Of a DNA stretch of 42,231 nucleotides, positions 2,633 through 32,422 are shown in pieces; the first letter of the stretch is position 1, and each line of letters opens with the position of its first letter. The stretch is from Desulfobacterales bacterium (GTDB taxonomy: Bacteria; Desulfobacterota; Desulfobacteria; Desulfobacterales; UBA5852): positions 1 to 42,231 of the forward strand of contig JASFFM010000001.1 of NCBI GenBank assembly GCA_050124295.1, given 5' to 3'. Under the pieces are notes generated by a model. The model was not told the DNA's origin. It did not search any database and saw nothing but the letters and a program-made list of their open reading frames with translations. Position numbers and translations under genes: made by a program.

Positions 2633-2648
2633 GTGGAGTAAAGTGGGG
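2633..2648 (+). promoter_or_regulatory. Putative MraZ operator: direct repeats TGGAG / TGGGG with a 10-bp period
   Basis: GTGGAGtaaaGTGGGG lies 15-30 nt upstream of the mraZ ATG. This matches the TGGGN-N5-TGGGN repeat architecture known for MraZ autoregulation in E. coli. A third upstream unit (TGCAT at 2624) is degenerate. Confidence 0.4.
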
Positions 2649-2662
2649 CACAGGACCAGATC

Positions 2663-3109: not shown

Positions 3110-3113
3110 TGCG

Positions 3114-4052: not shown

Positions 4053-4062
4053 GCTGGCGCCC

Positions 4063-4353
4063 ATGGCCCCCAAAAAGGCACCCAACCTCAGTCAAGGCAT
4101 GAAGACCATCTGGTTGGTGATCATGCTGGTCTTCATCATGGAACTGTTTGCCTACACCTGGTGTCGTGTTCAATGCGTGCGTATCGGATATGAAATCGCC
4201 ACCCAAAGAAGAAATTACGACCAGCAGCGTACGATCCGCAAAAACCTGGCCATTGAACTGGCCCGTTTGAAAGCGCCCAAACGAATCGAAGCCTTGGGGC
4301 GGCAGTTGGGGCTGGCCCCTCCAACCACCCGCCAGATCGTTGTGATGGAATGA
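4063..4353 (+). CDS. ftsL: Cell division protein FtsL (small bitopic membrane protein)
   Basis: 96 aa with one TM helix (IWLVIMLVFIMELFAYTW) followed by a coiled-coil-like region. Canonical position between rsmH and ftsI. ATGA overlap with ftsI. Confidence 0.75.
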   Translation: MAPKKAPNLSQGMKTIWLVIMLVFIMELFAYTWCRVQCVRIGYEIATQRRNYDQQRTIRKNLAIELARLKAPKRIEALGRQLGLAPPTTRQIVVME

Positions 4354-9054: not shown

Positions 9055-9070
9055 GGATGATAATCGACCC

Positions 9071-10150: not shown

Positions 10151-10334
10151 GCGAGGCGGTGTATCCACTCGCCGCCGCGACCCAGAGGATACCCAGAGCA
10201 GGGGCGAGTTCTTGGGGATCCAGATCGTCTTCTAAAAAGAAAGCTGCCCCAGGCATCCGAACAAATGTTGTTGAAGCGTAAAACCGTGCCCTGTCCTCCA
10301 CCCGAGGGGAGGGTTTGGGACCCAAGCCGAGAAT

Positions 10335-13986: not shown

Positions 13987-13988
13987 GC

Positions 13989-15359: not shown

Positions 15360-15393
15360 CCCTCTGAAGGGCAACGCCAAAGCAGGTAGCATT

Positions 15394-16266
15394 ATGTTTG
15401 GACGCCAAAAACGCATCCGCCGGAACACCTATAAAGGTCGGCGCCGCAACCGCCGCCGCGCCATCTGGACCCGCACCCTGGCAACGGTCAAGATGGTGCT
15501 GGCCGCGACGGTTTTTGCGCTGTTCAACCTGATGCTGATTTTCGGCCACGACTGGATTACCCAGACGGAGCGCCTGCGGATTCGCTCGGTCACGGTCGAG
15601 GGATGTGCCCGCCTGACCCCGGCGATGGTCAAAGCCCAGGCCGGGCTGACGGAAGAGGGCAACATTCTGGGGGTCAACCTGGCGACCACCCGCAAACGCC
15701 TTCTGGCGCATCCCTGGATCGCCCAGGCACGCGTCACCCGGGATATTCCCGATCGGCTGCAAATTCATATCCAGGAACATAGCTGCCTGGCCGTGCTGGA
15801 TCTCGGCCGCCGGTTCCTGATGAATGCGGAGGGCCAGGTCTTCAAAGAACTCAAACCTGGTGAAACCCAGGACGTACCGCTGGTCAGCGGGTTGACCTAC
15901 GTCGATCTCGGGCTTCATGCGGACGCACCAACGGCGGTCATGCGCGCGGTCATGGACATTCTCCAGCCCCGGCGGCGCTCCAGGCGACACGAACTCGCGG
16001 GCCGGATTCGCGAGATCCACGCCGACCCGGTCCTGGGTCTGACCCTCTTTCAGGCGGACAGCAATCAACCGCTTGGCTACCGCACCGTCATGCTCGGGTT
16101 CGACGATTTTGATGAAAAATTTGCCCGGTTGCAAAAAATCGACGCCTATCTGCAGAACCATCGCCGCTATGCTGGATTCAGGTCCATCGATTTAAACAAC
16201 CCCCACCGAATTATTGTCAATCCGGTGGAGACGCGCGCCGCGCAGGACCCTCGGAAGGAGGTTTAG
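15394..16266 (+). CDS. ftsQ: Cell division protein FtsQ (POTRA domain)
   Basis: Very basic cytoplasmic tail (RQKRIRRNTYKGRRRNRRR), a single TM helix, then a POTRA-like IRSVTVEG segment. Position between murC and ftsA. Confidence 0.85.
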   Translation: MFGRQKRIRRNTYKGRRRNRRRAIWTRTLATVKMVLAATVFALFNLMLIFGHDWITQTERLRIRSVTVEGCARLTPAMVKAQAGLTEEGNILGVNLATTRKRLLAHPWIAQARVTRDIPDRLQIHIQEHSCLAVLDLGRRFLMNAEGQVFKELKPGETQDVPLVSGLTYVDLGLHADAPTAVMRAVMDILQPRRRSRRHELAGRIREIHADPVLGLTLFQADSNQPLGYRTVMLGFDDFDEKFARLQKIDAYLQNHRRYAGFRSIDLNNPHRIIVNPVETRAAQDPRKEV

Positions 16267-16267
16267 G

Positions 16268-17494
16268 ATGCAGGGACGAGACAATCTGATTGTGGGCCTT
16301 GATATCGGAACGACGAAGATCTGCTGTGTGGTCGGAGAAGTCTCCCAGGGCGAGGTCAATATTATCGGTATCGGTACCCATCCCTCGATCGGGCTGCGCA
16401 AGGGGGTTGTCGTCAATATCGAATCCACGGTGGATTCCATCAAAAAGGCCGTGGAGGAAGCCGAACTGATGGCCGGCTGCGAGATTTCCTCGGTCTACAC
16501 GGGCATTGCCGGGGGACATATCACCGGTTTCAACAGCCGCGGCATCGTTGCCATCAAAGGGCCTGAGATTACCGAAAATGATGTGGAGCGCGTCATCGAT
16601 GCCGCCCGCGCAGTGGCTATTCCCATGGACCGGGAGGTCATCCACGTCCTTCCCCAAGAGTATATCGTCGACGAGCAAGCCGGCATTCAGAACCCGGTGA
16701 GTATGGCCGGTGTGCGGCTGGAGGCCAAGATTCATATCGTCACCGGGGCGGTGACGTCGGCCCACAACATCGTCAAGTGCTGCAACCGTTCGGGGCTCGA
16801 CGTGTGCGACATCGTCCTCGAGTCCCTGGCTTCAGGCGAGGCCGTGCTCACTGGAGAAGAAAAAGAACTGGGAACCGCCCTGCTGGATTTAGGGGGCGGA
16901 ACCACCGACCTGGCCATTTTTTCGGACAAAAACATCCGCCACACCTTCGTGCTGGCCTTGGGGGGCAACAACTTGACCAACGACATTGCCATCGGTCTGC
17001 GCTCACCCCATATGGATGCCGAAAAGATCAAAACCCGATACGGCACCTGCCTTTCCAAAAGCGTCAGCGCCGACGACATGATCGAAGTCCCCGGCATGGG
17101 AGGACGCGAGGCCCGCAAACTGCCGCGCCAGATCCTGGGCGAGATTCTGGAGCCCCGCATGGAGGAAATCTTCACCTTGGCCAAACGGGAAGTCTTCCGG
17201 GCCGGCCTGGAAAACCACATTCCCTCCGGTCTGGTCCTCACGGGGGGCACGTCGTTGTTGGAAGGTGCCACGGAAATCGCCGAATCCGTCTTTAACCTGC
17301 AGACCCGGCTCGGCAAACCCCAGGGCATCACCGGTCTGGTGGATGTGGTCAACAACCCCATGTATGCCACCGGCGTAGGCCTGGTGCTTTATGGCGCCAA
17401 GAATCAAACCGCCAAAAAATTCCGGATTCGCGACGCCCATATTTTTAACCGCATCGTGACCCAGATGAAACGCTGGTTCAAGGATGTCGTCTAA
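16268..17494 (+). CDS. ftsA: Cell division protein FtsA
   Basis: Actin-like ATPase N-terminus LIVGLDIGTTKICCVVGE and LDLGGGTTD. C-terminal amphipathic helix (RIVTQMKRWFKDVV). The ATG at 16268 is 1 nt after the ftsQ stop. Confidence 0.95.
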   Translation: MQGRDNLIVGLDIGTTKICCVVGEVSQGEVNIIGIGTHPSIGLRKGVVVNIESTVDSIKKAVEEAELMAGCEISSVYTGIAGGHITGFNSRGIVAIKGPEITENDVERVIDAARAVAIPMDREVIHVLPQEYIVDEQAGIQNPVSMAGVRLEAKIHIVTGAVTSAHNIVKCCNRSGLDVCDIVLESLASGEAVLTGEEKELGTALLDLGGGTTDLAIFSDKNIRHTFVLALGGNNLTNDIAIGLRSPHMDAEKIKTRYGTCLSKSVSADDMIEVPGMGGREARKLPRQILGEILEPRMEEIFTLAKREVFRAGLENHIPSGLVLTGGTSLLEGATEIAESVFNLQTRLGKPQGITGLVDVVNNPMYATGVGLVLYGAKNQTAKKFRIRDAHIFNRIVTQMKRWFKDVV

Positions 17495-17579
17495 CCGGCA
17501 TGACAAATTAGCCGACGGTCATCGATGGCATCGTGCCGACCGCCGGTTCAAACCATCCAATCGGATAGAGGGGGGAACT

Positions 17580-18764
17580 ATGTTTACTTATGTCGACAAT
17601 GAAAATTCCGCCAAGATCAAAGTTATCGGCGTTGGCGGCGCCGGCGGAAACGCCATCAACAACATGATTTCATCCAATCTCCAGGGGGTGAAATTTATCG
17701 CCGCCAACACCGACGCCCAGGCCCTGGAAGTATCCAAAGCACCGATTAAAATTCAATTGGGTGAGCGACTGACAGAGGGTCTGGGCGCCGGCGCCAATCC
17801 GGATGTCGGCCGGGAGGCGGCCATCGAAACCACCGATGCGATCCGCAGTGCCCTGGAAGGCAGCCACATGGTGTTCATCACGGCCGGCCTGGGCGGCGGG
17901 ACCGGTACAGGCGCAGCCCCGGTGATTGGTGAAATCTGTAAGGAGTTGGGCATCCTGACCGTGGCAGTGGTTTCCAAACCGTTTTCGTTCGAGGGCAAGA
18001 AACGCTCCCTCCAGGCCGATATGGGCCTGGAGAGCCTCAAACAAACGGCCGATACGGCCATAACCATCAACAACGACCGCCTGCGCGGCCTGGCCTCCAA
18101 AAAAGCCACCATGCTGGAGATGTTCCGGCGGGCCGACGAGGTGCTGCTGCATTCCGTCAAAGGCATCACGGATTTGATCATGATGCCGGGTCTGGTGAAC
18201 CTCGATTTTGCCGATGTCAAGGCCACCATGTCCAAAGCCGGCATGGCCATCATGGGCATCGGAACGGCCAGCGGCGAAAACCGGGCCGTGGAAGCCGCCG
18301 AACGGGCCATCTCCCATCCGCTGCTGGAAGACGTTTCCATCACCGGCGCCACCGGGGTTCTGATGAACATCACGAGCACCAGCGAGCTGACCATGGAAGA
18401 AATGACCGAAGCCTCGGACCGCATCTACAATGAAGTCGGCGAAGATGCCGATATCATCTGGGGTACGGTGGTGGACGACAGCCTGGGGGATGAGATGCGC
18501 GTGACGGTCATCGCCACCGGCATCGGGGGCAGCGCTCCCCAGGAAACCCCCGTCAAGATCGTCGATGAAACCTACGGCGGTAAGCTGCGCCCGGTTACGG
18601 TGAACGACCTCGGCCATGTCGAGGACTACGAAGAGCCGGCTTTCATGCGGCGGCGCAAGGTGGCCGGTGGATCCATGGGATCGCACCTGGGCGGTTTCGA
18701 GAGCGACGCCGTTGATGAGAGCGATCTGGATGTACCGACCTTTCTGCGGCGCAAGGCCGATTAG
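17580..18764 (+). CDS. ftsZ: Cell division GTPase FtsZ
   Basis: IKVIGVGGAGGNAINNM, tubulin signature GGGTGTGAAPVI, conserved C-terminal peptide DLDVPTFLRRKAD. The ATG at 17580 is preceded by GAGGGGGGA. Confidence 0.97.
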   Translation: MFTYVDNENSAKIKVIGVGGAGGNAINNMISSNLQGVKFIAANTDAQALEVSKAPIKIQLGERLTEGLGAGANPDVGREAAIETTDAIRSALEGSHMVFITAGLGGGTGTGAAPVIGEICKELGILTVAVVSKPFSFEGKKRSLQADMGLESLKQTADTAITINNDRLRGLASKKATMLEMFRRADEVLLHSVKGITDLIMMPGLVNLDFADVKATMSKAGMAIMGIGTASGENRAVEAAERAISHPLLEDVSITGATGVLMNITSTSELTMEEMTEASDRIYNEVGEDADIIWGTVVDDSLGDEMRVTVIATGIGGSAPQETPVKIVDETYGGKLRPVTVNDLGHVEDYEEPAFMRRRKVAGGSMGSHLGGFESDAVDESDLDVPTFLRRKAD

Positions 18765-18968
18765 CAGACGCATTGACTCCCCGGGACGTCGTGCCGGGCA
18801 ACCCCGGTGCTACGCTGGCTGTCGACCTCGGACAGCATTGACTTTCGACCGGCAGCCGTTATCCTGAACCATTGGTATTGCCACCTCCGGTGCCAGGCGG
18901 TCCCCCCCCGCACAGGCACCGGACCCGCCGCGAAAGACCGGCCGCGGCGTTCCGGGAAGTCAGGCCCT

Positions 18969-20675
18969 ATGAAGAAGCACCCCTCATCGCCATCGCCTCA
19001 TGGCGCCGCGGAAACCGGTGTCATCCGCAAATCATGGTCGGACCGCATCCATGTCGGCCTGGCCTTTCCCCAGCACTACCGCCTGGCCATGTCCAATCTC
19101 GGCTATCAGACGGTTTATCGCCAATTCAACGCCATCGAAGACATTGTCTGCGAGCGGTTTTGTCTGCCCGATCAACCCGACACACCCCTGCGCGCCATCG
19201 AAAGCGGCCGACCGCTGGCGGCCTTCGATATCCTGGCTTTCTCCGTAGCTTTTGAAAACGACTACCCCAACCTGATTGCCATGCTGGCCCAGGGCCGCCT
19301 GCCGCTTTTGGCCCGCGACCGCGACACCACCCACCCCCTGGTTATCATCGGCGGCATTGCGGCCATGCTCAATCCCGAGCCTCTGGCGCCCTTTGCCGAT
19401 GTTATCCTGATTGGTGAAGCCGAAGCCCTGTTGCCCGGTTTCACAGCCATTTACCGGCAGACATCCAGCCGCGCGCAGTTTTTGCGGCAAGCCGCCACGG
19501 CCGTCCCTGGCGCCTATATCCCGGCGTTCTATACCCTCGCCTATGACCGTCATGGCGACATCGCCTCCCGCCAGCCCGCCGCCGGCATCCCGGCAACCGT
19601 AAACCGGGCCTACCTGCCGGACGTTGAAACGATGGACACCGCTTCGACCATTCTGACCGCGGACACCACCTTTGCTGACACCTGCCTGATCGAAGTCAGT
19701 CGCGGATGCCCGCATGGCTGCCGCTTTTGCAGTGCCGGGTTTATCTATCGCCCGCCCCGCTTTCGTAGCGCCGATTTCCTGGAAGAGAGCATTCGCCGCG
19801 CCATGCGGCGAACCTCCCGTGTGGGTCTGGTGGGGGCCGCCGTGTCCGACTTTCCCGAACTAAGCGCCATCTGCCGCCGCTTTGAAAATACCGCTTTGCG
19901 GTTGTCGTTCAGTTCCCTGCGGGCCGACGCCCTCACCGACGAACTGCTGGCAGTGCTGAGGGCCAACCGGACCAAGACGGCCACCATCGCACCGGAAGCC
20001 GGCTCCCAGCGTTTGCGCAACGTCATCAACAAAGGGTTGTCCGAAGCAGATATCCTGTGGGGCGTGGAAAAAATCGTCCAGACCGGCATCCTCAATATTA
20101 AGCTTTACTTCCTTATCGGCCTGCCCACGGAGACCATGGAAGACATCGAGGCCATCCTAGCGCTCTGCCGCCAGATCAAGGCGGTCTTCCTGAATGCCAG
20201 CCGGAAGCGGAAACGCATGGGCACGATCACCGTCAACACCAACGCGTTTATTCCCAAACCGGCGACCCCCTTTCAGTGGGCGGCCATGGATACGATCGCC
20301 TCCCTGCAGACCAAAGCCCGCCTTTTGCGCACGGGTCTCAAAGCGATCGCCAACGTGCGCTTCCAGATGGACAACCTGCGCGACGGTTACGTCCAGGCCC
20401 TTTTCTCCCGGGGGGACCGCCGCCTGGCCGATCTTCTCTTGCAACACCATCATATCGGCGGCAACTGGGGTCAGACTTTCCGAAGCAGCGCCATCGATAC
20501 CGCCCGCTATGTGAACCGCGAACGTGACCGTGATGAAATGCTCCCCTGGGATTTCATTGACACCGGGGTGACCAAATCCTTTCTCTGGGACGACTACCAG
20601 AAGGCCCTCAGCGGTAGGTTGACCCCGCCATGTCCCTTGCATGGTTGCACCCGCTGCGGTGCCTGTCCGGCGTGA
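18969..20675 (+). CDS. Large radical SAM protein with a B12-binding-like N-terminal domain (TIGR03960-like family)
   Basis: CPHGCRFC (CxxxCxxC) radical SAM cluster motif. The N-terminal segment (LAMSNLGYQTVY...) resembles the uncharacterised radical SAM family that usually pairs with DUF2344. Start trimmed to the ATG at 18969 (MKKHPSS). Confidence 0.75.
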   Translation: MKKHPSSPSPHGAAETGVIRKSWSDRIHVGLAFPQHYRLAMSNLGYQTVYRQFNAIEDIVCERFCLPDQPDTPLRAIESGRPLAAFDILAFSVAFENDYPNLIAMLAQGRLPLLARDRDTTHPLVIIGGIAAMLNPEPLAPFADVILIGEAEALLPGFTAIYRQTSSRAQFLRQAATAVPGAYIPAFYTLAYDRHGDIASRQPAAGIPATVNRAYLPDVETMDTASTILTADTTFADTCLIEVSRGCPHGCRFCSAGFIYRPPRFRSADFLEESIRRAMRRTSRVGLVGAAVSDFPELSAICRRFENTALRLSFSSLRADALTDELLAVLRANRTKTATIAPEAGSQRLRNVINKGLSEADILWGVEKIVQTGILNIKLYFLIGLPTETMEDIEAILALCRQIKAVFLNASRKRKRMGTITVNTNAFIPKPATPFQWAAMDTIASLQTKARLLRTGLKAIANVRFQMDNLRDGYVQALFSRGDRRLADLLLQHHHIGGNWGQTFRSSAIDTARYVNRERDRDEMLPWDFIDTGVTKSFLWDDYQKALSGRLTPPCPLHGCTRCGACPA

Positions 20676-20792: not shown

Positions 20793-20822
20793 TTGACCGA
20801 TTTTTTAGCTCACGAATATTTT
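20793..20822 (+). promoter_or_regulatory. Candidate sigma70-type promoter of the cytochrome c/rnf operon (TTGACC-18 nt-TATTTT)
   Basis: TTGACC at 20793-20798 and TATTTT at 20817-20822, in an AT-rich stretch of the 275-bp intergenic region upstream of the cytochrome gene. Confidence 0.4.
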
Positions 20823-20950: not shown

Positions 20951-21388
20951 ATGACTTCTAAGAGAGAGTTGAAGCTGATCTACAGCGTGGCTGTCATTCT
21001 CTTTGTGGTTGGTCTTTTCTGTTACGCCGCTTTCCCCTCCAAACCTCCGGACGAGCCCGTCCGAATCCAGTATCGCAGTGCTACCGGCAACGTCCTCTTC
21101 GAACATAGTAAACATGCCGCCGACTACGGCGTCGACTGCTATGATTGCCATCATCATCCCGGCGATGATGAGGCGGGGCTGGTGGCCTGCAGTGAATGTC
21201 ACCTTAAGAACCCGGAAGAAAACGCCCCACCACCCGAAATCTGCCTGGACTGCCATGGGGAAGATGAAATTGAAGATACCGAAATGCTGTCCCAACCCGA
21301 TGCATCCCACAATCAGTGCGCGGAGTGCCACGACGGAATTGGGGCCGGCCCGCTAAAACAAGCCTGTTCGGAATGCCATCTCCAATAG
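20951..21388 (+). CDS. Membrane-anchored pentaheme c-type cytochrome (Rnf-associated)
   Basis: Five CxxCH motifs (CYDCH, CSECH, CLDCH, CAECH, CSECH) within about 90 aa. N-terminal hydrophobic anchor or signal (LIYSVAVILFVVGLFCYAAF). The ATG at 20951 follows AAGGAA. Confidence 0.9.
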   Translation: MTSKRELKLIYSVAVILFVVGLFCYAAFPSKPPDEPVRIQYRSATGNVLFEHSKHAADYGVDCYDCHHHPGDDEAGLVACSECHLKNPEENAPPPEICLDCHGEDEIEDTEMLSQPDASHNQCAECHDGIGAGPLKQACSECHLQ

Positions 21389-21451
21389 TTTGGGAACAGA
21401 TCTGGCAATTACCCCGGTGTTTCGCCGTCTTGCGTTCAGAAGGGTCAGATT

Positions 21452-22735
21452 ATGATCAACAATGTATTCAGCCGTTCAGCCAGTGAAACCATCCACTACG
21501 AGCTGCTTCATCAAACCCCGCAGGGCCTGCAGCACATCACCAGTGCCGAGACCGCCGTTCTTCTCATTGAAGAAAAACTCGAACGCCAGTCCCAGCTGGC
21601 CTTGAAAGTCGGTGATAGCGTGCAAACGGGTCAAAAGATAGTACCCTTTAGCGACCGCCCGGCCTATGCGATTTCGAGCGTAACCGGCACCGTGGCGGCC
21701 ATCCGGCCCATGAACGGTGATTTCGGCAAGCATTTCACGGCCATCGATATTTCCCTGGCGGAGGCCGAAATTGTGGCGGAAGGCCCGGGCGAGATGGAAC
21801 CGACCCTGGCCAATCTCACCGGATGGCTGGCCGGCGCCCCCGGAAATCCGCCCCTGCATCTTTTCGCTGCCGTTGATCACGGCATCCACACCCTGGTCGT
21901 GGCCGGTGTCGATGCCGACCTTCTGGTGGCCACCAACCAGTTTGTCATCAAATCGGAACTAGAGGCCGTCAACCGGGGCATTGATGTTTTAAAAAGCGCC
22001 ACCGGCGTCGACCAGGTGGCCATCGCCGTGCCCCGTGATCTGGTGCAGGGGTTCGGCCATACCGGCGCCAGCGAACTCAAGGCGGTAGCGCCCGATTATC
22101 CGGCCGCCAATCCCAAATTGATCATCTACGAGGCCTTCGGCCGGGAAATCCCGGCCGGGAAATCATGTGAAGACATGGGCTTTGCCTTTTTCAGCGCCGA
22201 AGCGGTGGCTTCCATCGGCAAGGCTTTTGCCACCGGCCGGGTTCCCCATGAAAAAACCATTACCCTGGTGGACAAAAACGGCCGCAAAACCATCCTCTCG
22301 GCCCGTATCGGCACACCCATCGCGGATGTTCTGGCCGCCCACGGGATCGAAACGGGCAGCATGGACCGCCTGGTCACGGGCGGCCCCATGACCGGCATGG
22401 CCATCTTCGACGAGCAGATGCCGATCAAGGCCGACACCGACGCTATCCTGGTGCAGGACGCCAGCGACGTATCCCTGGTCTCCGATTATCCCTGTATCAA
22501 TTGCGGGGAATGTGTTCGGGCCTGTCCCACCCGGGTGCCGGTCAACATGCTGGTGCGCTTTCTGGAAGCCGGCCAATACGAGGAAGGTGCCGACCTTTAC
22601 GACCTTTATTCCTGCGTTGATTGCGGCTTATGCAGTTTCGTATGCGTGGCCCGCATTCCCATCTTTCAATATATCAAACTGGCCAAATACGAACTTTCCC
22701 GACTGACGGCAGCGGAGGCCTCGAATGAGCAGTAA
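21452..22735 (+). CDS. rnfC: Rnf complex subunit C (divergent; NADH/FMN motifs degenerate)
   Basis: RnfC_N-like LKVGDSVQTGQKI, LVTGGPMTGMAI, and two ferredoxin motifs (CINCGECVRACP and CVDCGLCSFVC). Position ahead of rnfDGEAB. Confidence 0.85.
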   Translation: MINNVFSRSASETIHYELLHQTPQGLQHITSAETAVLLIEEKLERQSQLALKVGDSVQTGQKIVPFSDRPAYAISSVTGTVAAIRPMNGDFGKHFTAIDISLAEAEIVAEGPGEMEPTLANLTGWLAGAPGNPPLHLFAAVDHGIHTLVVAGVDADLLVATNQFVIKSELEAVNRGIDVLKSATGVDQVAIAVPRDLVQGFGHTGASELKAVAPDYPAANPKLIIYEAFGREIPAGKSCEDMGFAFFSAEAVASIGKAFATGRVPHEKTITLVDKNGRKTILSARIGTPIADVLAAHGIETGSMDRLVTGGPMTGMAIFDEQMPIKADTDAILVQDASDVSLVSDYPCINCGECVRACPTRVPVNMLVRFLEAGQYEEGADLYDLYSCVDCGLCSFVCVARIPIFQYIKLAKYELSRLTAAEASNEQ

Positions 22736-23684
22736 AAAAAAGTTCATCGTCTCGCATGCGCCCTTCTGGCATAACGGCAGCAATGTTGCCGAAAGGCACT
22801 ACGGCATGCTGCTGGCCGCCATGCCGGCCGTGGCATTGGGCATCGTGTACTATGGTTTTCCCGCCGTGGCGGTCATCGCCCTATCGATCTCCAGCGCTAT
22901 TTTCTGGGAATGGCTGATGTGCCGGTTCACCAAACGTACCATGACCGTCGGCGATGGCAACGCCGCCCTGCTGGGTCTGCTGTTTGCCATGCTGATCCCG
23001 GCCACCACGCCCTGGTGGGTGGTGCTCACGGGGACCCTCCTGACGATGGTTATCGGCCTGCACATTTTCGGCGGTATTGGCAGCAACCCCTTTCATCCGG
23101 TGGCCGTGGCCATGATGATGCTGACCGTCTCCTGGGCCGAATTTATGGATTTCAACGCCGCCCTGGTCAACTATGATTTCGCGTTCAATGCTGTGTATCC
23201 GCTGAGCCTCTCCAAAAACCTCGGCACGGCTGCCGTCGCTGATTTTACAACGCTCAACCTTCTGCTGGGCAGGCAAGTGGGCGGCATCGGCAGTACTTTC
23301 GGACTCGGTCTTATCGGGGGCGGGCTCTATTTGATGGCCAAAGGCTATATCCGCTGGGAAATCAGCCTGTCTTTTCTGGGCGGCATTTTTCTATCGGCAC
23401 TCGCTTTTCACCTGGCGGCGCCGGCCCAGTACGCCGGCCCCATGTTTCATCTGCTGACAGGGTACACCCTGATCGGCGCCTTTTTCCTCCTGCCGGAGAG
23501 CGCTTCTTCGCCGGTCAATCCGATCCCCATGGTGATTTACGGGGCCGGGGCCGCTATTATGACCATGCTGATTCGCAATATCGGTATGTATCATGACGGT
23601 GTTTTGCTGGCTGTGCTGTTGATGAATCTCGTTAATCCACTGCTGGACAAAATCAGACCGCAGGCTTTGGGAAAGGTGGCTTAA
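22725..23684 (+). CDS. rnfD: Rnf complex subunit D (NqrB/RnfD family, divergent)
   Basis: Polytopic membrane protein with SHAPFWHNG, FGGIGSNPFHP, HLLTGYTLIGAFFLL and NLVNPLLDK segments colinear with RnfD/RsxD. 11-nt overlap with rnfC. Confidence 0.88.
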   Translation: MSSKKKFIVSHAPFWHNGSNVAERHYGMLLAAMPAVALGIVYYGFPAVAVIALSISSAIFWEWLMCRFTKRTMTVGDGNAALLGLLFAMLIPATTPWWVVLTGTLLTMVIGLHIFGGIGSNPFHPVAVAMMMLTVSWAEFMDFNAALVNYDFAFNAVYPLSLSKNLGTAAVADFTTLNLLLGRQVGGIGSTFGLGLIGGGLYLMAKGYIRWEISLSFLGGIFLSALAFHLAAPAQYAGPMFHLLTGYTLIGAFFLLPESASSPVNPIPMVIYGAGAAIMTMLIRNIGMYHDGVLLAVLLMNLVNPLLDKIRPQALGKVA

Positions 23685-23685
23685 C

Positions 23686-24264
23686 ATGGGTGAAATGATC
23701 AAGATGGTTGTCGTGCTGACCTTTCTGAGTTCGCTATCGGGCGGGGTGCTGGCCTACGTGAAAGAGGGTACCAGAGAACAAATCGACATGCAGGTTTTAC
23801 AATTGGTCAAGGGGCCGGCCATCAAAACCATTTTCAAGGATGCCACCAACGACCCGGTGGCCGATCGCTTCAGTATCGAAGAGGATGGGAGTAAATACGA
23901 CATGTTCGTTGCCAAGGTGGACGGCAAGGACATGGTCGCCTTTGAAACCTTTGGCAAGGGCTATGGTGGCGATATCGGCCTGGTGGTCGCCTTCGACGTG
24001 GCCGAGGACAAGATTTACGGGGTCGGTGTGACCACGCTCAGCGAAACGGCCGGGCTGGGCTCCAAAGCCAAAGAGGACCCCAAATTTGCGGCCCAGTTCG
24101 CCGGTGTCGATGCCAAAGGGCCGATTGAGGTCGGCAATCCGATCAATGCTTTGAGCGGGGCCACGATCACCTCGCGGGCGGTCTGTTCGGCGGCCACCGA
24201 TGCGGGCGCCGTCTATGAACGGCTGAAACCCCAGATCGAAAAACAACTGCAAGCTTTTAAATAA
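23686..24264 (+). CDS. rnfG: Rnf complex subunit G (FMN_bind domain)
   Basis: N-terminal TM helix, GYGGDIGLVVAF, and an intact flavinylation motif LSGATITSRAV. Confidence 0.9.
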   Translation: MGEMIKMVVVLTFLSSLSGGVLAYVKEGTREQIDMQVLQLVKGPAIKTIFKDATNDPVADRFSIEEDGSKYDMFVAKVDGKDMVAFETFGKGYGGDIGLVVAFDVAEDKIYGVGVTTLSETAGLGSKAKEDPKFAAQFAGVDAKGPIEVGNPINALSGATITSRAVCSAATDAGAVYERLKPQIEKQLQAFK

Positions 24265-24277
24265 CAGGGAGAGCCCC

Positions 24278-24907
24278 ATGGCGAAATCGATCACGCATGA
24301 ATTTGTTAAGGGTCTATGGGAAGAGGTTCCCCCGTTCCGGCTGGTTTTGGGGCTCTGCCCCGTTCTGGGGGTTACCACCAAGATGCAGTTCGGCATCGGC
24401 ATGGGATTGGCCACGACCTTCGTTCTGGTTTTTGCCAATTTTCTGGTTTCCCTGCTAAGAAAGGTCATCCCGGCCAAAGTCCGTATCGCCTGCTTCATTA
24501 TCATTATCGCGACCTTCGTGATCCTGGTGGAACTGCTGATGCAGGCGTATGCCTACAAACTGTTTCTCGACCTGGGGCTTTTCATTCCCTTGATCGTGGT
24601 AAACTGCATCGTCCTGGGCCGCGCCGAAGCCTTCGCCTCCAAAAACGGCCTGTTCCTTTCGATTGCCGACGGACTGGGCATCGGCATCGGTTTTACCCTC
24701 TCCCTGGCAGCCCTTGGCGGTCTGCGTGAAATATTGGGGGCCGGCACCCTGACCGTTTGGGGCGCTCCCCTCTTCGATGGTCCCATTCTGAACATCGCCA
24801 ATTATTTTCCTGGATTCCGGCCATTCGAATTCATGGTTCAAGCCCCCGGCGCCTTCGTCTGCCTGGGCATCATGCTGTGCTTCATGAATATGGTGGGCAA
24901 AAAATAG
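24278..24907 (+). CDS. rnfE: Rnf complex subunit E
   Basis: GLCPVLGVTTKMQFGIGMGLATTFVL...VRIACFIIIIATFV, typical RnfE/NqrD. Confidence 0.92.
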   Translation: MAKSITHEFVKGLWEEVPPFRLVLGLCPVLGVTTKMQFGIGMGLATTFVLVFANFLVSLLRKVIPAKVRIACFIIIIATFVILVELLMQAYAYKLFLDLGLFIPLIVVNCIVLGRAEAFASKNGLFLSIADGLGIGIGFTLSLAALGGLREILGAGTLTVWGAPLFDGPILNIANYFPGFRPFEFMVQAPGAFVCLGIMLCFMNMVGKK

Positions 24908-24917
24908 GAGATTCCCC

Positions 24918-25493
24918 ATGGGCGACTATTTCACCCTGATCATCAGTTGTATCTTCGTCAACAACATCCTCCTGGCGCAATTTCTGGGGAACTGCCCCTT
25001 TTTCGGGACCTCCAAAAAAATGGAAACAGCCGTGGGCATGGCCATGGCGGTTGTCTTTGTCCTGGTCATGGCCGGTGTGATCACCTGGCTGATTTATACC
25101 TACTTACTCGCCGAATTGGGGCTCACTTACCTTCGCACCATCGCCTTCATTCTGGTGATCGCCTCCCTGGTGCAGTTCGTGGAGATGTTCCTGAAAAAAA
25201 GTATTCCTGCGCTGTATGCCGGCCTGGGGATCTTCCTGCCGCTGATTACGACCAATTGCGCCGTTTTTGGCGCCTGCGTCATCAATATCGACAAGGAATA
25301 TTCCTTCATGCAGGCATTGGTGGCTTCGTTCAGTTTCGCCGTGGGTTTCGGTCTGGCGCTGATTCTGTTCGCCGGCGTGCGGGAACGCATTCTGCTGGCC
25401 CGGGTGCCTCGCCCCCTGCAGGATACCTCCATCGCCCTGGTGACGGCCGGGATTATTTCCCTGTCTTTCTATGCGTTCAAGGGTATGGTATAA
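24918..25493 (+). CDS. rnfA: Rnf complex subunit A
   Basis: IFVNNILLAQFLGNCPFFGTSKKMETAVGMAMAVVFV, typical RnfA/NqrE. AGGAGA RBS. Confidence 0.92.
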   Translation: MGDYFTLIISCIFVNNILLAQFLGNCPFFGTSKKMETAVGMAMAVVFVLVMAGVITWLIYTYLLAELGLTYLRTIAFILVIASLVQFVEMFLKKSIPALYAGLGIFLPLITTNCAVFGACVINIDKEYSFMQALVASFSFAVGFGLALILFAGVRERILLARVPRPLQDTSIALVTAGIISLSFYAFKGMV

Positions 25494-25666
25494 TCGGAAT
25501 TAAAAGGCCGCCGGGGGCTGCTGAAGCAGCTACCGATGAGATGAAGCGGCCGCCATCGATCAAAAAATGATGAATAACCAAATCTGCTATCTTCCCCATG
25601 CAACCCTGCATTCTGCTTCTCTTCTCGATGGGTTTCCATTCGAATGCATTCCCCAAGGAGATCGCC

Positions 25667-27766
25667 GTGCTTGATCCTGTCGTCATTTCCGTCATGGCCT
25701 TAATGGGCATTGGGGCCACTTGCGGCCTGGTGCTCAGTGTGGCCTCGAAAGTGTTCTATGTTTACGAAGATCCGCGCATCGCCCAGGTCGAATATTTTTT
25801 TGCCGGTGCCAATTGCGGCGGTTGCGGTTATGCCGGCTGTTCTTCGGCCGCCGTGGCCGTGGTCAACGGCAACGCCCCGCCCGGGGTTTGCATCGTGGCC
25901 GGAATGGAGTCCGCCGTGTCTGTCGCCGAGGTGATGGGCGTCGATCCGGGCAGTGCCGAGCCCCTGATGTCCAAAAACGAATGTTCCGGCGGCGAGCGTG
26001 CCGAAAACCATTATGTCTATAACGGTGTCAACAGCTGTCAGGCCCTGGCCGCGCTTTATGGCGGACACAAAATCTGCTCCATCGGCTGTCTCGGGCAGGG
26101 CGACTGCATCAAGGCCTGCCGGTTCAACGCCGTGCACATGGGCCCCAACGGCTTCCCGGTCGTGGACGAGGCCATGTGCGTCGGCTGCGGGGCCTGTGAA
26201 AAAGCCTGTCCCAAGAACATCATCCGTGTGCGCACCATGTCCGAGCGCCTGCTGCACTTCAACCAGGAAGACGACGCCCTGGCGCCCTGCCAGCAGACCT
26301 GCCCGGCGGAAATCGACATCCCACGCTATATCCGCCAGATTAAAGAAGGCGATTACGAAGGTGCCGTGCACACCATACGGGAGCGCAATCCGCTTCTGCT
26401 GACCTGCGGCCGGGTTTGTCCCCATCCCTGTGAAGACAAGTGCCGCCGCGGCATTGAAGATGAAGCCGTATCCATCAATCAACTGAAGCGCTTTGTGGCT
26501 GACTATGAAATGAACTCGGGCAGCCGTCTGCCCATCGCCTGTGCGCCGGATACCGGTAAACGGGTCGCCGTCATCGGTGGCGGACCGGCCGGGCTGAGTT
26601 GCGCCTATTTCCTGCGCCGGCTGGGCCACGGCGTCAAGATTTACGACATGATGCCCAGGCTGGGCGGGATGACCCGCTACGGGATTCCCGAATACCGGCT
26701 CCCCAAGGAAGTCCTGCAATGGGAAACCGATGGCATCTTGAACCTGGGCATTGAATTCCAGGGCGGCGTTCGCCTGGGGCAGGATTACACCGTTGGTGCC
26801 CTGCGTGATGAAGGCTTTGACGCGATCTTTATGGGCGTTGGTGCCTGGAAGGATTACAAGCTGCGGGCCGAGGGCGAAGACCTCAAGGGCTGCTATACCG
26901 GCATCGATTTTCTTACCCGTTTTGCCAGCCACCAGCAGGGCGATGACCCGGATGAGGTTCCGGTGGGCAAAAAATGCGTCGTCATCGGTGGCGGCAATAC
27001 CGCCATCGACTGCGTGCGCACCCTCATCCGCTTGGGCGCCGATGAAGTCTCCATCGTCTATCGCCGCACCCGCAAGGAGATGCCGGCCAACGCGGTGGAG
27101 ATCGAAGCCGCCGAACACGAGGGGGTTCAATTTCACTTTCTGGCCGCACCGGTAAAAGCCATCGGCGATGCCAAGGGGTATGTCAAGCAACTGGAATACC
27201 TCAAGATGGAGTTGGGCGAACCCGACGCCAGCGGACGCCGGCGGCCGGTGCCGATCGAAGGTTCGGAAACCCTGATGGACATCGACATGCTGATCACGGC
27301 CATCGGCCAGGGACCGGATGTCTCTTTTCTGGAAAAAGAGGCCGCCATCAAGGATCTGGAAATCACCCGCTGGAGCACCATCGAGGCCGATCCGGAAACG
27401 CTCCAGACCAATATCCCCTACGTTTTTGCCGCTGGCGACGCCCAGACCGGCGCCTCCCTCGTGGTGGAAGCCATTGGCGGGGGTCGTCGGGCGGCGCGGG
27501 CCATCCACCTTTATCTGAATGACGAAGACGTGACCCCCGTTCCCAAGTCCTTGCGCAAAAAACACATCCCCGAATCCCTCTTCGAAACGGTGGCCGGCAT
27601 CACACCCATCAAACGCACCCCCATGCCGGAGATGCCGGTGGAGGAACGCATCAAAACGTTCGAGGAAGCGGATCTCGTGATCAATGAGACCGATGCCGGA
27701 CGCGAATCCAATCGCTGCCTGAATTGCTGCCGCATTTGTTACGACAAGGACGCCTGCGCGGCCTAA
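25667..27766 (+). CDS. rnfB: RnfB fused to a GltD/NfnB-like FAD- and NAD(P)H-binding iron-sulfur oxidoreductase
   Basis: N-terminal half: TM helix, CGGCGYAGC FeS domain, and two 4Fe-4S ferredoxin motifs (CSIGCLGQGDCIKAC, CVGCGACEKACP). C-terminal half: CQQTCP...CGRVCPHPCEDKC (GltD Fer4_20-like), VAVIGGGPAGLSCA (FAD) and VVIGGGNTAIDCVRT (NAD(P)H). It ends in a Cys-rich tail, CLNCCRICYDKDAC. I prefer the GTG start at 25667 because of AAGGAG 6 nt upstream. The upstream in-frame ATG at 25598 is an alternative. Confidence 0.85.
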   Translation: MLDPVVISVMALMGIGATCGLVLSVASKVFYVYEDPRIAQVEYFFAGANCGGCGYAGCSSAAVAVVNGNAPPGVCIVAGMESAVSVAEVMGVDPGSAEPLMSKNECSGGERAENHYVYNGVNSCQALAALYGGHKICSIGCLGQGDCIKACRFNAVHMGPNGFPVVDEAMCVGCGACEKACPKNIIRVRTMSERLLHFNQEDDALAPCQQTCPAEIDIPRYIRQIKEGDYEGAVHTIRERNPLLLTCGRVCPHPCEDKCRRGIEDEAVSINQLKRFVADYEMNSGSRLPIACAPDTGKRVAVIGGGPAGLSCAYFLRRLGHGVKIYDMMPRLGGMTRYGIPEYRLPKEVLQWETDGILNLGIEFQGGVRLGQDYTVGALRDEGFDAIFMGVGAWKDYKLRAEGEDLKGCYTGIDFLTRFASHQQGDDPDEVPVGKKCVVIGGGNTAIDCVRTLIRLGADEVSIVYRRTRKEMPANAVEIEAAEHEGVQFHFLAAPVKAIGDAKGYVKQLEYLKMELGEPDASGRRRPVPIEGSETLMDIDMLITAIGQGPDVSFLEKEAAIKDLEITRWSTIEADPETLQTNIPYVFAAGDAQTGASLVVEAIGGGRRAARAIHLYLNDEDVTPVPKSLRKKHIPESLFETVAGITPIKRTPMPEMPVEERIKTFEEADLVINETDAGRESNRCLNCCRICYDKDACAA

Positions 27767-27849: not shown

Positions 27850-28072
27850 GGATAGCGCCAGCCACGGCGCCGCTTCACCGCTCGGGGGCCGTGCCCGGTA
27901 ACGTCACCGCCGTCGGTGATCGTGATCGCGATAAGAGGTCGCGATGGGAACATCTTCGCGGGGGCATCCATCCTTGAGGAGGCGACCTCACCGCTGCCGA
28001 ACGAGCACGTATCAAGAAAGGCATCACGCGCGAGGCACCTCCGGCGGGGCGGGAGGCCATCGTCCGGATTTT

Positions 28073-29754: not shown

Positions 29755-31767
29755 TTACATCAGGAAGGGTACCATCAGCAGCGCGACGACGTTCAGGATC
29801 TTGATCATCGGGTTGACAGCCGGTCCGGCGGTGTCTTTGTAGGGGTCGCCTACGGTATCGCCGGTGACGGCGGCCTTGTGAGCATCGCTGCCCTTGCCGC
29901 CCAGATGGCCGTCTTCGATGTATTTCTTGGCGTTATCCCAGGCCGCGCCCCCCGTGGTCATGGAAAGCGCCACGAACACGCCGGTAACGATGGAGCCGAT
30001 CAGCAGACCGCCCAAGGCGATCTTGCCCAGGAAAAAACCCACCAGCAGCGGGGCGATAACCGGCAGAATGGCCGGCACCAGCATTTCCTTCAAGGCAAAC
30101 TTGGTCACGATGTCCACGCAGGCACCGTAATCCGGTTTGGCCGTACCTTCCATGATCCCGGGGATCTCGCGGAACTGACGACGAACCTCATCCACCACGG
30201 CGCCGCCGGCATTGCCAACGGCCTTCATGGCGATGGAGGCAAACAGGTAGGGCAACAAACCACCAATGAAAAGACCGATGATGACGTTGACATCCGAAAG
30301 GTCGAAGGCCATGGCTTCCTTGCCGCCGCCTCGCATCTGGAATTCCATCACGTAAGCGGCGAAAAGCACCAGGGCGGCCAAGCCGGCGGAACCAATCGCG
30401 TAACCCTTGGTGACCGCTTTGGTGGTGTTGCCAACCGCATCCAGGGGATCGGTCACGGCGCGCACGCTCTCGTCCATTTCGGCCATCTCGGCGATACCGC
30501 CGGCATTGTCCGTAATGGGACCGTAGGCATCGATGGCGATCACCATACCGGTCATGGAAAGCATGGAAATGGCGGCCATGGCGATGCCGTAGAGACCGCC
30601 AAACTGGTGGGCCAGCAGAATAGCCAAACAGATGGCCAGCACCGGCGCTGCGGTGGCCTGCATGGAAACCGCCAGACCGGAAATGATGTTGGTACCGTGA
30701 CCGGTGGTGGACGCTTCGGCGATGGCCTTAACCGGCCCGTAGATCCCGGTGTAGTATTCGGTGATGATAACGATCACGACCGTCAGCACCAGCCCGATCA
30801 GGGTGCAGTAGTAGATGTTCATGGCGGAGATGTCGGGGATGTTGCCCATGAACTTCATGGTGGCAAAATAGAAGACGATCCCGGCTAGAATGGCGGAGCC
30901 GAACATGCCCTTGTAGAGTGCGCCCATGATGTAGCCGCCCGAGCCCAGGCGAACGAAAAATACGGCAATCATGGAGGCGATGATCGAAATAGCACCCAGA
31001 ACCAACGGGAATTCAGTCGCCATGGGGATTTTCGGGAACAGCAGGTGTCCGATGAGCATGGCGGCCACGGCCGTCACGGCATAGGTCTCGAAGAGATCGG
31101 CGGCCATACCGGCGCAGTCACCCACGTTATCGCCCACGTTGTCGGCGATGGTGGCCGGGTTGCGGGGGTCGTCTTCCGGGATACCGGCTTCGACCTTACC
31201 CACCAGGTCCGCGCCGACGTCCGCACCCTTGGTGAAGATACCACCGCCCAGACGGGCAAAGATCGAAATCAGGCTGCCACCGAAACCGAGGGCAACCAGG
31301 GCCACGACGTCATGGGTCAGGGTGTAGTAACCCGCCACCGAGGTCAGGGCCAGGCCCGCCACGATCATCCCGGTCACGGAGCCACCCTTGAAAGCCATGG
31401 AAAGACCGGCGGCCATGCCCTTTTTGGCGGCTTCCGCCGTGCGGACGTTGGCCAAAACGGAGACCCGCATGCCGATGTATCCCGCCAAGAAGGACGCCAC
31501 CGCGCCCACGAGAAAACCGATGGCGGTTTTGGCACCCATGGTCGCAAAAATAACACCAAAAATGATAATGCCCGCAATCCCCATGCTTTTCATCTGGCGA
31601 TTGAGATAGGCGATCGCACCTTCCTGGATGGCGCCGGCGATCGACTGCATTTTTTCGTTTCCAGCCGGTGCGCCTTTTACAATCGCGGCCAGAATGATGG
31701 CAAACAAAATACCGGATACGCCTACGAGCGTACATGTCAGCGGCAGATTATTGAATACTGCGTCCAT
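29755..31767 (-). CDS. hppA: Membrane-bound proton-translocating pyrophosphatase (K+-independent type)
   Basis: [57 protein letters not shown] prefer the ATG at 31767 because the minus strand reads GGAGGAAAGA-ATG. The in-frame ATG at 31779 is an alternative. Confidence 0.95.
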
Positions 31768-32422
31768 TCTTTCCTCCATCAGAAGTTTCGGGTGAATTCT
31801 TGGTTGTGCGATGAAACCTGTTCATACCGACTTTCGCCCCGTGGCAAAGGACGGTCTCTGCGGCATCACAGGCTCGGGCGAACACCGCATCCAGCATCTC
31901 CTTTTCCGGTGTGCTGAACGGTCCCAGTACGTGATCGATGACATCACTTCCGCGAGCCGGACGCCCGATGCCGATACGTAAACGGGCAAATTCTCCGCTG
32001 CCCAGGGCATCCATAACTGATTTCAAACCGTTGTGGCCTCCATGCCCTCCTTTCTCTTTTATTTTTATGCGTCCAAAAGCAAGATCAATATCGTCATGAA
32101 TGATCAATACGTCCTTTAGGGAGATACCGTAATAAGACATCAGGCGCAAGACAGGCGGCCCGCTGCGGTTCATAAATGCCTGGGGGGCGACGAGAACCAC
32201 GGCCCGATCTGCAATGACACCCAAACCGTAACAACTGTCGAAACGACAATCCGTCAGCGAGATACCATGATCTCGACCGAATCGCTCCAGAACCCGAAAG
32301 CCCGCATTGTGCCGGGTTTGTTGATAGGCCTCCCCCGGATTGCCCAGCCCCACGAGCATAAACTGGGGTTTCGGGCCTCTGCGCAGGCGCGAGATCCATC
32401 GCCGTACAAACTGCCCCAACAC
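31748..32422 (-). CDS. pth: Peptidyl-tRNA hydrolase
   Basis: [20 protein letters not shown] and HGGHNGLKS motifs. The start is uncertain: GTG at 32422 after GAGG, ATG at 32359, or TTG at 32485. The 3' end overlaps the hppA start out of frame. Confidence 0.88.

Follow-up and report, generated by a model that had tools for sequence, protein, structure and literature searches.

An Rnf2-type operon of a Desulfobacterales bacterium with an RnfB-GltD fusion, a degenerate RnfC and an RnfD without the flavinylation threonine

By which subunits might an Rnf complex exchange electrons when the usual nicotinamide site of RnfC is missing? The question is raised by an operon at positions 20951-27766 (+) of a 42,231-nt stretch of DNA from a Desulfobacterales bacterium (contig JASFFM010000001.1, assembly GCA_050124295.1), the whole of which is called the window here. 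Its seven co-directional, tightly spaced open reading frames (ORFs) encode a c-type cytochrome, RnfC, RnfD, RnfG, RnfE, RnfA and an RnfB fused to a GltD-like module. In the canonical path, as laid out in a 2025 review of Rnf and Nqr, electrons run from RnfB to the [2Fe-2S] cluster of RnfA/RnfE, the flavin mononucleotide (FMN) of RnfG, the covalent FMN of RnfD and riboflavin, and from there through the RnfC clusters and a further FMN to NAD+, so that each electron crosses the membrane twice. The gene content of the operon, the cofactor motifs present and absent in it, their conservation and its identity with the published Rnf2 type are read directly from the locus and its relatives.

Gene content and identity of the operon

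Pfam and NCBIfam profile searches of the operon ORFs matched all six Rnf subunits in the order C-D-G-E-A-B and assigned the cytochrome, and together with the ORF coordinates they confirmed the seven-gene arrangement given in the initial annotation. RnfC (TIGR01945, 180.8 vs 245.95 bits) and RnfD (199.9 vs 207.05) missed their TIGR subfamily cut-offs. Conservation was scored over 80 fetched genome loci, comprising 64 RnfC, 68 RnfD, 68 RnfG, 63 cytochrome and 80 fused RnfB sequences. Seven-gene synteny was found in about 60 of the 80 genomes, which is every fetched locus with enough upstream DNA. Cultured carriers of the syntenic operon include, with closed genomes, Desulfosarcina alkanivorans, D. 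variabilis, D. widdelii and Desulfonema magnum, whose RnfB and RnfA are 68-70% and 81-86% identical to those of the window; subunit by subunit, identities to Desulfosarcina and Desulfonema range from 44 to 96%. The window itself comes from an uncultured bacterium, with a best relative at 91% identity.

The Tol2-type Rnf of Desulfobacteraceae was reportedly described by Woehlbrand and colleagues in 2016 in Proteomics, as cited by Doerries et al. This Tol2-type Rnf, or Rnf2, is published in Desulfobacteraceae and is defined by an RnfB that measures ~700 aa and includes a domain of the pyridine-nucleotide oxidoreductase kind, an RnfC without the Complex1_51K and SLBB domains, and a small cytochrome c3-like gene (Doerries et al. 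2016, PMC5109826; Science Advances 2025, PMC11887813). The name Rnf2 comes from the latter study, which places the complex in the Desulfobacteraceae core genome and found it abundant and constitutive in six strains. In the published hypothesis, electrons would pass from ferredoxin or NAD(P)H through cytochrome c3 to Qrc. A 2024 survey of Desulfovibrionaceae noted that an ‘FAD-dependent oxidoreductase’ (FAD, flavin adenine dinucleotide) replaces rnfB in marine strains and drew an analogy with the Na+-translocating NADH:quinone oxidoreductase (Na+-NQR). The idea that rnf-linked cytochromes join the periplasmic pool with cytoplasmic NAD(P)H or ferredoxin is attributed to Li 2006 and Pereira 2011. 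The 2025 Rnf/Nqr review mentions neither sulfate reducers nor NADPH.

Because the subunits are assigned, the operon is syntenic and the published type description matches, the operon is almost certainly an orthologue of the Rnf2 complex of Desulfobacteraceae, that is, of the type named after Desulfobacula toluolica Tol2 (D. toluolica itself lies outside the fetched loci). The architecture is already known as a type and the same hypothesis has been published. The full combination, for which the initial annotation knew of no characterised complex, is therefore not new, having been published as Tol2-type Rnf/Rnf2 and noted in Desulfovibrionaceae as well.

Cofactor sites lost, kept and added

Residue-level alignments were made against the solved Rnf complexes of A. 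vinelandii (Rnf1, 8ahx), A. woodii (9eri) and C. tetanomorphum (7zc6). RnfC (21452-22735, +) is degenerate, with two [4Fe-4S] sites kept. It also matches the NqrA model (80.5 bits), its Complex1_51K score (PF01512, 29.1 bits) lies below the gathering score of 31.2, and SLBB (PF10531) gave no match in the Pfam search. The FMN loop GGA(T/I)FP of the solved Rnfs aligns to AGAPGNPP, the NADH motif NGAECEPYLTAD to AGVDADLLVATN and YPQGAEKQLI to YPAANPKLII, and the two CxxCxxCxxxC cluster motifs are preserved. None of the 64 orthologues has the FMN and NADH motifs, and 59 variants occupy the former GGAxFP site, which points to a lack of constraint there. A control operon (L091) placed in the same alignment has all three motifs (GGxxFP, ECEPY and YPxGxEKQ) intact. 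Nowhere in the operon is constraint weaker than in RnfC residues 1-300 (consensus 0.52-0.66); the iron-sulfur domain of RnfC is well conserved, and its eight cysteines (Cys348-398) are 100% conserved.

RnfD (22725-23684, +; 319 aa; PF03116, 265 bits) has a tyrosine, Tyr158 in NAVYPL, where the solved RnfDs have the flavinylated threonine of TTATPL, the residue that carries a phosphoester-linked FMN (2025 Rnf/Nqr review). Among the 68 orthologues the column holds tyrosine in 45, aspartate in 10, alanine in 5, phenylalanine in 4, histidine in 2, and glutamine and serine in one each; threonine occurs in none. An alignment artefact is ruled out, as the flanking proline (+1, 68/68), leucine (+2, 65/68) and lysine (+6, 68/68) anchor the alignment and neither [ST]GAT nor any other ApbE-type motif occurs anywhere in the 68 RnfDs. 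The former flavinylation loop is the least conserved stretch of the protein, and nqrB models match RnfD only weakly (88 bits vs a cut-off of 414). An exhaustive search for RnfD homologues over 1.84 billion representatives extended this picture: the 34 closest clusters at 50% identity (P0121-P0154), reaching down to 31% identity to the window's RnfD, all lack the motif, and the canonical D-x-x-[ST]-x-A-T-P-L reappears beyond that distance. A loose pattern had returned 27 of 120 RnfD relatives as canonical, but most of these matches fell on alignment at an unrelated position near 233; A-[TS]-P is kept at the true site in 15 hits.

The absence of the NuoF-like motifs from RnfC and of the flavinylated threonine from RnfD, both proposed in the initial annotation, thus held against the solved structures and across the orthologues, and no functional RnfC FMN/NADH site or RnfD threonine emerged on alignment. 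The 2025 review calls the RnfD/NqrB cofactors ‘strictly conserved’, and the supplementary text of the Science Advances study (PMC11887813) never mentions RnfD and describes the other subunits as ‘very similar’ to canonical ones. No report of a missing RnfD flavinylation site was found in the literature; the loss of the covalent-flavin site is apparently new and unreported.

The remaining core subunits keep their cofactor ligands. RnfG (23686-24264, +) is of the DVU2794 type (NF045876, 226 bits, cut-off 205) and retains the FMN site SGATIT, with SGAT found in 67 of 68 orthologues. RnfE (24278-24907, +; PF02508, 207 bits; TIGR01948, 235 bits) has the [2Fe-2S] ligand cysteines C27 and C110, both 100% conserved, and RnfA (24918-25493, +; TIGR01943, 248.6 bits), the most conserved subunit of the operon, has C26 and C114, conserved at 99-100%. 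Four such cysteines, two each from RnfA and RnfE, ligate the intramembrane [2Fe-2S] cluster (2025 Rnf/Nqr review).

The last gene, rnfB (25667-27766, +; PF04060, Fer4, PF14691 and PF07992), encodes RnfB fused to a module resembling GltD, NfnB and StnC. The mechanically called ORF of 722 aa begins at ATG 25598, and the true start is most likely not there but at GTG 25667, which has AAGGAG 6 nt upstream and gives a protein of 699 aa; homologues measure 695-701 aa, and it is not before residues 20-24 that the alignment becomes well occupied. The 23 codons in front of the likely start (25598-25666) could lead annotation pipelines to over-extend the gene. The RnfB-proper part (25667-26260, +) comprises a transmembrane helix, a PF04060 [4Fe-4S] cluster site (C73, C76, C81 and C98) and a 2x[4Fe-4S] ferredoxin domain; its cluster cysteines are 100% conserved, and it aligns to residues 4-201 of 7zc6_B (163 bits) and 4-190 of 9eri_B.

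Behind it follow a Fer4_20 domain with two [4Fe-4S] sites of the GltD/NfnB type (26282-26518, +; PF14691, 85.6 bits, residues 229-307; C231, C235, C270, C274, C278 and C282 invariant) and FAD and NADPH-type dinucleotide-binding domains (26561-27523, +; PF07992, 112 bits). The C-terminal 500 residues can be aligned over their whole length (250-420 bits) with GltD, NfnB, StnC, dihydropyrimidine dehydrogenase and an ‘NfnA’ of 963 aa. Residues ~229-642, which match NfnB, StnC and GltD at 337-420 bits, include the FAD motif GxGxxG and a second fold with GGGNTAIDx(n)YRRTRKEMPA, to which GGGNTAMD...YRRTRKEMTA in the P. furiosus NfnI large subunit is a close match; VAVIGGGPAGLSCAYFL and GGGNTAIDCVRTLIRLGADEVSIVYRRTRKEMPAN align to that subunit, StnC and GltD. 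These three proteins are, we take it, NADPH-binding. A specificity of the RnfB module for NADPH rather than NADH is accordingly predicted from identity with the NADPH-binding homologues only.

The C-terminal tail (27614-27739, +), with the invariant pattern C707-x2-C710-C711-x2-C714, has its homologue in the stretch of NfnB that holds cluster ligands near the N-terminus. In NfnB the counterpart of the last 50 residues (RTPMPEMPVEERIKTFEE...RCLNCCRIC) precedes Fer4_20; here, as in StnC and 9bov, it follows the nucleotide domains. The tail is co-linear with 9bov_A and 8oh5_C and weakly with residues 8-45 of 5jca_L. As read from its C-x2-C motif, this NfnB-type segment probably supplies two cluster ligands, the invariant C707 and C710, which would join C231, C235, C274, C278 and C282. 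Three invariant cysteines lie beyond the NfnB-type ligands, C270 (TCGRVC, 26405-26407) and, in the tail motif C707-C714 (27716-27739), C711 and C714; they may form an additional metal site, and the CxxCCxxC form of the tail is restricted to the clade of the window's operon.

The fused RnfB is a functional, selected protein. Over 80 sequences it is invariant at 293 of 722 columns, among them every cluster cysteine, both dinucleotide motifs and the junction; in distant lineages, too, the two parts meet at residues ~198-206, in a region conserved at 80-88%. The complete FAD and NAD(P)H module that the initial annotation had read on RnfB is confirmed. That the fusion might be an assembly or frameshift artefact joining two genes is ruled out, its probability being negligible in our view: the fused protein of ~695-701 aa recurs in >120 protein clusters (at 90% identity) with at least 72% identity to it, and in 267 genome stretches including closed, complete genomes, with the junction in the same place.

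The first gene (20951-21388, +) encodes a small pentahaem c-type cytochrome of 145 aa, of the class III/c7-like kind (Pfam Cytochrom_CIII, PF02085, 33.4 bits; Cytochrome_C7, 28.2 bits), starting at ATG 20951 with AAGGAA upstream. It has five CxxCH motifs, as do 53 of 63 orthologues, and the haem cysteines and histidines together with five extra histidines are 90-100% conserved; motifs and extra histidines together would be enough for five bis-His haems. Near the N-terminus, residues ~9-28 are hydrophobic and precede a conserved C/S-Y-A-A-F-P; this stretch may serve either as an anchor or as a Sec signal that is cleaved off. Of the ‘membrane-anchored 5-heme cytochrome’ first described, the five haems are confirmed and the anchor is one of two possibilities. 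A cytochrome with such a signal or anchor is co-encoded in 62 fetched loci, and one also accompanies the fused RnfB in Pseudodesulfovibrio, Desulfomicrobiaceae and ADurb.Bin236.

Relatives and the order of the losses

Outgroup operons (L081-L093, with L091 as the canonical control) were compared with that of the window; the RnfC of L092 and L093 was judged from a precomputed Pfam list. In all nine outgroup operons whose RnfC was aligned (L081, L083, L084 and L086-L090) RnfC lacks the three motifs even where Pfam reports Complex1_51K, and L092 and L093 have no Complex1_51K match in the precomputed list. Four of these operons encode a small RnfB of 265-279 aa: L084 (5111-10746), L087 (5709-10801), L089 (5726-10722) and L090 (5743-11011). 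They contain no nicotinamide module anywhere and their RnfC is motif-degenerate, while Pfam still calls Complex1_51K, so that domain-level annotation would class them as canonical ferredoxin:NAD+ Rnf.

The other traits are distributed as a mosaic. The RnfD threonine is also missing in L081-L088, L092 and L093. L089 and L090 (the latter from Desulfohalobiaceae) keep it next to an already degenerate RnfC, and the degeneration of RnfC is therefore older than the loss of the RnfD threonine. A strict co-occurrence of the threonine loss with the cytochrome or the fusion is ruled out: Desulfonatronovibrio hydrogenovorans (L087) has a small RnfB and no adjacent cytochrome, a Syntrophobacterales operon (L088) has a fused RnfB and no adjacent cytochrome, and L084 has a cytochrome with a small RnfB. 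Fused RnfB occurs with a decahaem cytochrome in Pseudodesulfovibrio and Desulfomicrobiaceae, with two operons in P. tunisiensis, and with a downstream 22-haem cytochrome in ADurb.Bin236; one Desulfobacterota metagenome-assembled genome combines a tetrahaem c3 with a small RnfB of 268 aa.

Some of these loci have features of their own. P. tunisiensis (CP094380) has two RnfD paralogues, P0508 and P0530; the operon of the latter (L092, 1628938-1643888) encodes a cytochrome, a short RnfC and a fused RnfB, and is flanked by genes for fumarase, malic enzyme and a dicarboxylate symporter and, on the other side, by pta-ackA. In L087 a true nqrB-F and apbE cluster (1-5398) lies directly upstream of the degenerate-RnfC rnf operon (5709-11808), which places both pump types side by side. 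In L088 (10075-12129) the GltD module of the fused RnfB shows only 40% identity, and the GGGN[ST]AxD...YRR stretch is missing; either an independent history or another nucleotide specificity may lie behind this. A response-regulator/flavin-reductase gene comes after this rnfB, with RseC and ApbE.

Across Desulfobacterales, Desulfovibrionales and ADurb the fused RnfB is 55-56% identical and has the same junction, which indicates that the RnfB-GltD fusion probably arose once, long ago. All six outgroup RnfGs scanned score best on the NCBIfam model RnfG_DVU2794 (185-293 bits, compared with 226 for the window's RnfG), which places the D. vulgaris Rnf in the same clade. The rnf genes of D. vulgaris and D. 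alaskensis were not among the matches in two homologue searches seeded with outgroup RnfDs; these searches returned Desulfonatronovibrio, Desulfothermus, Desulfohalobiaceae, Pseudodesulfovibrio and Desulfomicrobiaceae. The loss of the RnfC motifs spans the whole DVU2794-type Rnf clade sampled, the small-RnfB operons included. Because these small-RnfB operons share the RnfC loss, the GltD fusion was an addition to an already NAD-blind Rnf, and the initial annotation's view that NAD(P)H entry had been ‘relocated’ from RnfC to RnfB is oversimplified.

We tentatively extend this to the clade as a whole: the RnfC FMN/NADH site may have been lost in all members and the RnfD covalent FMN in most, and complexes with a DVU2794-type RnfG, including the small-RnfB ones that are annotated and modelled as ferredoxin:NAD+ oxidoreductases, might instead be one-way ferredoxin:cytochrome c pumps from cytoplasm to periplasm, to which the GltD fusion would later have added NADPH as a second donor. 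If true, the clade-wide loss would contradict the ‘strictly conserved’ RnfD/NqrB cofactors of the 2025 review, and the placement of Rnf in models of sulfate-reducer energy metabolism would change, possibly including that of Desulfovibrio.

Electron path, surroundings and known systems

The most economical model of the complex would be an NADPH and/or ferredoxin:cytochrome c one-way pump that exports Na+ or H+, to which we assign a probability of about one half. NADPH would be oxidised at the FAD of the GltD/NfnB-like module, and reduced ferredoxin may enter the same iron-sulfur wire. From there the Fer4_20 cluster pair and then the clusters of RnfB would carry electrons to the [2Fe-2S] cluster that RnfA/RnfE hold within the membrane, and on to the covalent FMN of RnfG on the periplasmic side, from which periplasmic cytochrome c could take them to feed Qrc, menaquinone and sulfate reduction. 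The RnfA/E/D/G core would couple this one-way outward transfer to Na+ or H+ export, reversibly in principle. The outward half of the canonical path is intact (RnfA/RnfE cysteines, RnfG SGAT), and the inward half lacks both the RnfD FMN, with which it would begin, and the FMN/NADH site of RnfC, where it would end; because RnfD has no covalent FMN and RnfC no FMN/NAD site, the canonical return path to the cytoplasm would be closed. Relative to the coupling core, ferredoxin and NADPH would bind on the same side, so that exchange between them would not be ion-coupled and a third redox partner would be required. The sequence logic of the proposal made at the outset, that NAD(P)H or ferredoxin is linked to periplasmic cytochrome c, is thus upheld by the missing RnfC site, the RnfB module and the cytochrome; its substrate (NADPH and/or ferredoxin), acceptor (cytochrome c), direction and ion coupling are what we infer from these features.

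Several points weigh against this model. Each step of the mechanism is one that we infer from sequence, and the transfer from NADPH to low-potential c3-type haems would have little driving force unless these haems are comparatively positive. The cytochrome is rarely detected in Rnf2 proteomes (Doerries 2016, PMC5109826; Science Advances 2025, PMC11887813). D. alaskensis G20 can do without the operon cytochrome dhcA but not without rnf; L088 has the fusion without an adjacent cytochrome, and L087, L089 and L090 have neither cytochrome nor fusion. The co-encoded cytochrome may therefore be neither the sole nor an obligatory acceptor, given the dispensable dhcA and the relatives without an adjacent cytochrome. 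RnfD could bind FMN non-covalently. The [4Fe-4S] sites of RnfC, finally, are 100% conserved throughout the clade, which the model does not explain and which is hard to square with a return path out of use and an RnfC whose role is structural alone.

This conservation speaks for a return path that persists, in which RnfD would bind its flavin non-covalently, the RnfC clusters would serve a cytoplasmic partner (ferredoxin or flavodoxin, DsrC/Hdr-type proteins, or the GltD module itself) and the cytochrome would be a side branch. The truly cofactor-less NqrA has lost its cluster cysteines, whereas those of RnfC are kept over a deep clade, and the dispensability of dhcA in G20 and the operons without a cytochrome fit as well. 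The weak constraint on the surface domain of RnfC (residues 1-300) argues against a specific docking site there, however, and the former flavinylation loop is the least conserved stretch of RnfD, so that we consider a surviving return path improbable. Somewhat better placed, though still unlikely, is the same complex running in reverse, with the Na+/H+ gradient driving electrons of periplasmic cytochrome c, from the oxidation of H2 or formate or from direct interspecies electron transfer, inward to NADPH or reduced ferredoxin for CO2 fixation and biosynthesis. Rnf/Nqr cores are reversible (2025 review), D. alaskensis G20 needs its rnf on H2 and formate, whose electrons come in through the periplasm, and the fused type occurs in Desulfobacterales related to partners of anaerobic methanotrophic archaea (ANME) and in autotrophic lineages. 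Yet the Desulfobacteraceae with constitutive Rnf2 expression are mostly organotrophic complete oxidisers, many without periplasmic hydrogenases (PMC5109826), and complete oxidisers must dispose of NADPH and ferredoxin electrons, not generate them.

An Nfn-like bifurcation or confurcation, also raised in the initial annotation, would have the NfnB-like FAD split an NADPH electron pair, with ferredoxin taking one electron uphill and cytochrome c receiving the other downhill by way of the membrane path, as in an Nfn with a cytochrome leg in place of NfnA and NAD+. It is marginally less probable even than a surviving return path and found no positive support. The closest solved homologues, NfnB and StnC, are bifurcating subunits, and the extra invariant C270, C711 and C714 could form a second branch point; but no NfnA-like [2Fe-2S]/FAD partner is present in the operon, and neither an NfnA- nor a GltB-like gene lies in or next to it, the same module serves as a linear NADPH input wire in GltD and dihydropyrimidine dehydrogenase, and electrons leaving the FAD have no visible route other than the Fer4_20 cluster pair, which is fused in line with RnfB. 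A conventional ferredoxin:NAD+ oxidoreductase with cosmetic deviations is what most databases annotate, but this is very hard to maintain and is rejected at the motif level, as all three RnfC motifs are absent and the canonical control L091 has them in the same alignment.

Much of the oxidation of organic carbon in marine sediments is the work of Desulfobacteraceae, and in them Rnf2 belongs to the core genome and to the most abundant constitutive membrane complexes, while being absent from the mainstream Rnf/Nqr literature. If Rnf2 is an NADPH/ferredoxin:cytochrome c pump, it would be the missing link between complete substrate oxidation and the periplasmic cytochrome/Qrc/menaquinone route for sulfate reduction, and an extra coupling site. 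Domain-level annotation overestimates the number of sulfate-reducer Rnf complexes able to bind NADH. Two points of interest go beyond the published type: RnfD has lost its covalent-flavin site, apparently unreported so far, and the NADH site of RnfC is gone at the motif level across the clade sampled, small-RnfB operons included.

Around the operon, a weak sigma-70-like promoter match lies upstream of the cytochrome gene (20793-20822, +; TTGACC-N16/18-AATATT/TATTTT, 9/12 consensus); promoter-like sites in the region are no more numerous than in shuffled sequences, and the position alone is suggestive. A terminator-like hairpin, a consensus match only, lies between the convergent rnfB and rluD (28047-28065, +). 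Upstream is a complete dcw cluster (3114-18764, +) with rsmH, ftsI, murE, murF, mraY, murD, a possible ftsW, murG, murC, ..., ftsA and ftsZ. Its 829-aa ORF at 11497-13986 has MurG in the C-terminal half only; towards the N-terminus it runs across the likely ftsW ORF in a different frame, and that part is probably not genuine. A radical SAM protein with Radical_SAM_N2 (18807-20675, +) is encoded between ftsZ and the rnf operon. Two kilobases downstream of rnf, beyond carD and rluD, is a gene for a membrane-integral H+/Na+-pyrophosphatase (29755-31779, -; 863 bits), a second ion-translocating enzyme typical of Desulfobacteraceae energy metabolism. Near the start of the window, a 355-aa ORF (408-1475, +) has no Pfam match at E<=1e-6 and is overlapped by an opposite-strand ORF (621-1517).

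Compared with the canonical ferredoxin:NAD+ Rnf (9eri, 7zc6 and 8ahx), the operon has in common the six subunits, the rnfCDGEAB order, the RnfA/RnfE ligands, the covalent FMN site of RnfG, the N-terminal cluster and ferredoxin domain of RnfB and the two [4Fe-4S] sites of RnfC. It differs in having no RnfC FMN/NADH site and no RnfD threonine, and in the added RnfB module (FAD, NADPH and 2x[4Fe-4S]) and cytochrome. Na+-NQR offers an analogy in that an input-side flavoprotein oxidises the nicotinamide (NqrF resembling RnfB-GltD in this role) and NqrA, the RnfC homologue, has lost nucleotide binding. The NqrF input module is, however, unrelated (Fer2, FAD_binding_6 and NAD_binding_1 as opposed to the GltD/NfnB type here); NqrB has a covalent FMN and N-terminal quinone-site helices, neither of which RnfD has here, and NqrA has no iron-sulfur clusters, whereas RnfC keeps its own.

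The module itself shares full-length alignment, FAD/NADPH-type motifs and Fer4_20 ligands with NfnB, StnC and GltD (5jca_L, 4ylf_B, 8oh5_C, 9bov_A, 9n5u_A and 2vdc_G), but unlike these it stands behind a membrane-anchored RnfB, has no NfnA/GltB partner and carries the extra invariant C270, C711 and C714. Rnf-MmcA of Methanosarcina acetivorans is alike in having a multihaem cytochrome first in an rnfCDGEAB operon and an acceptor other than NAD+; it differs in that RnfB, RnfD, RnfG and RnfC reportedly have conserved cofactor sites, in the lack of a GltD fusion and in a larger cytochrome. The Desulfovibrio Rnf-DhcA (DVU2791-2798; Dde_0580/0581-0587) likewise has the cytochrome gene first and an RnfG of the DVU2794 type, but is reported with a small RnfB and treated as a ferredoxin:NADH oxidoreductase. 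The closest system is Rnf2, with which the operon shares the ~700-aa RnfB, an RnfC without Complex1_51K/SLBB, the small cytochrome and the Desulfobacterales origin. At the Pfam-domain level the Rnf2 papers call the added domain NAD-binding, whereas from its motifs here it would be of the NADPH type; in architecture there is no difference, and the operon is a member of the type, orthologous to the operons of cultured Desulfobacteraceae.

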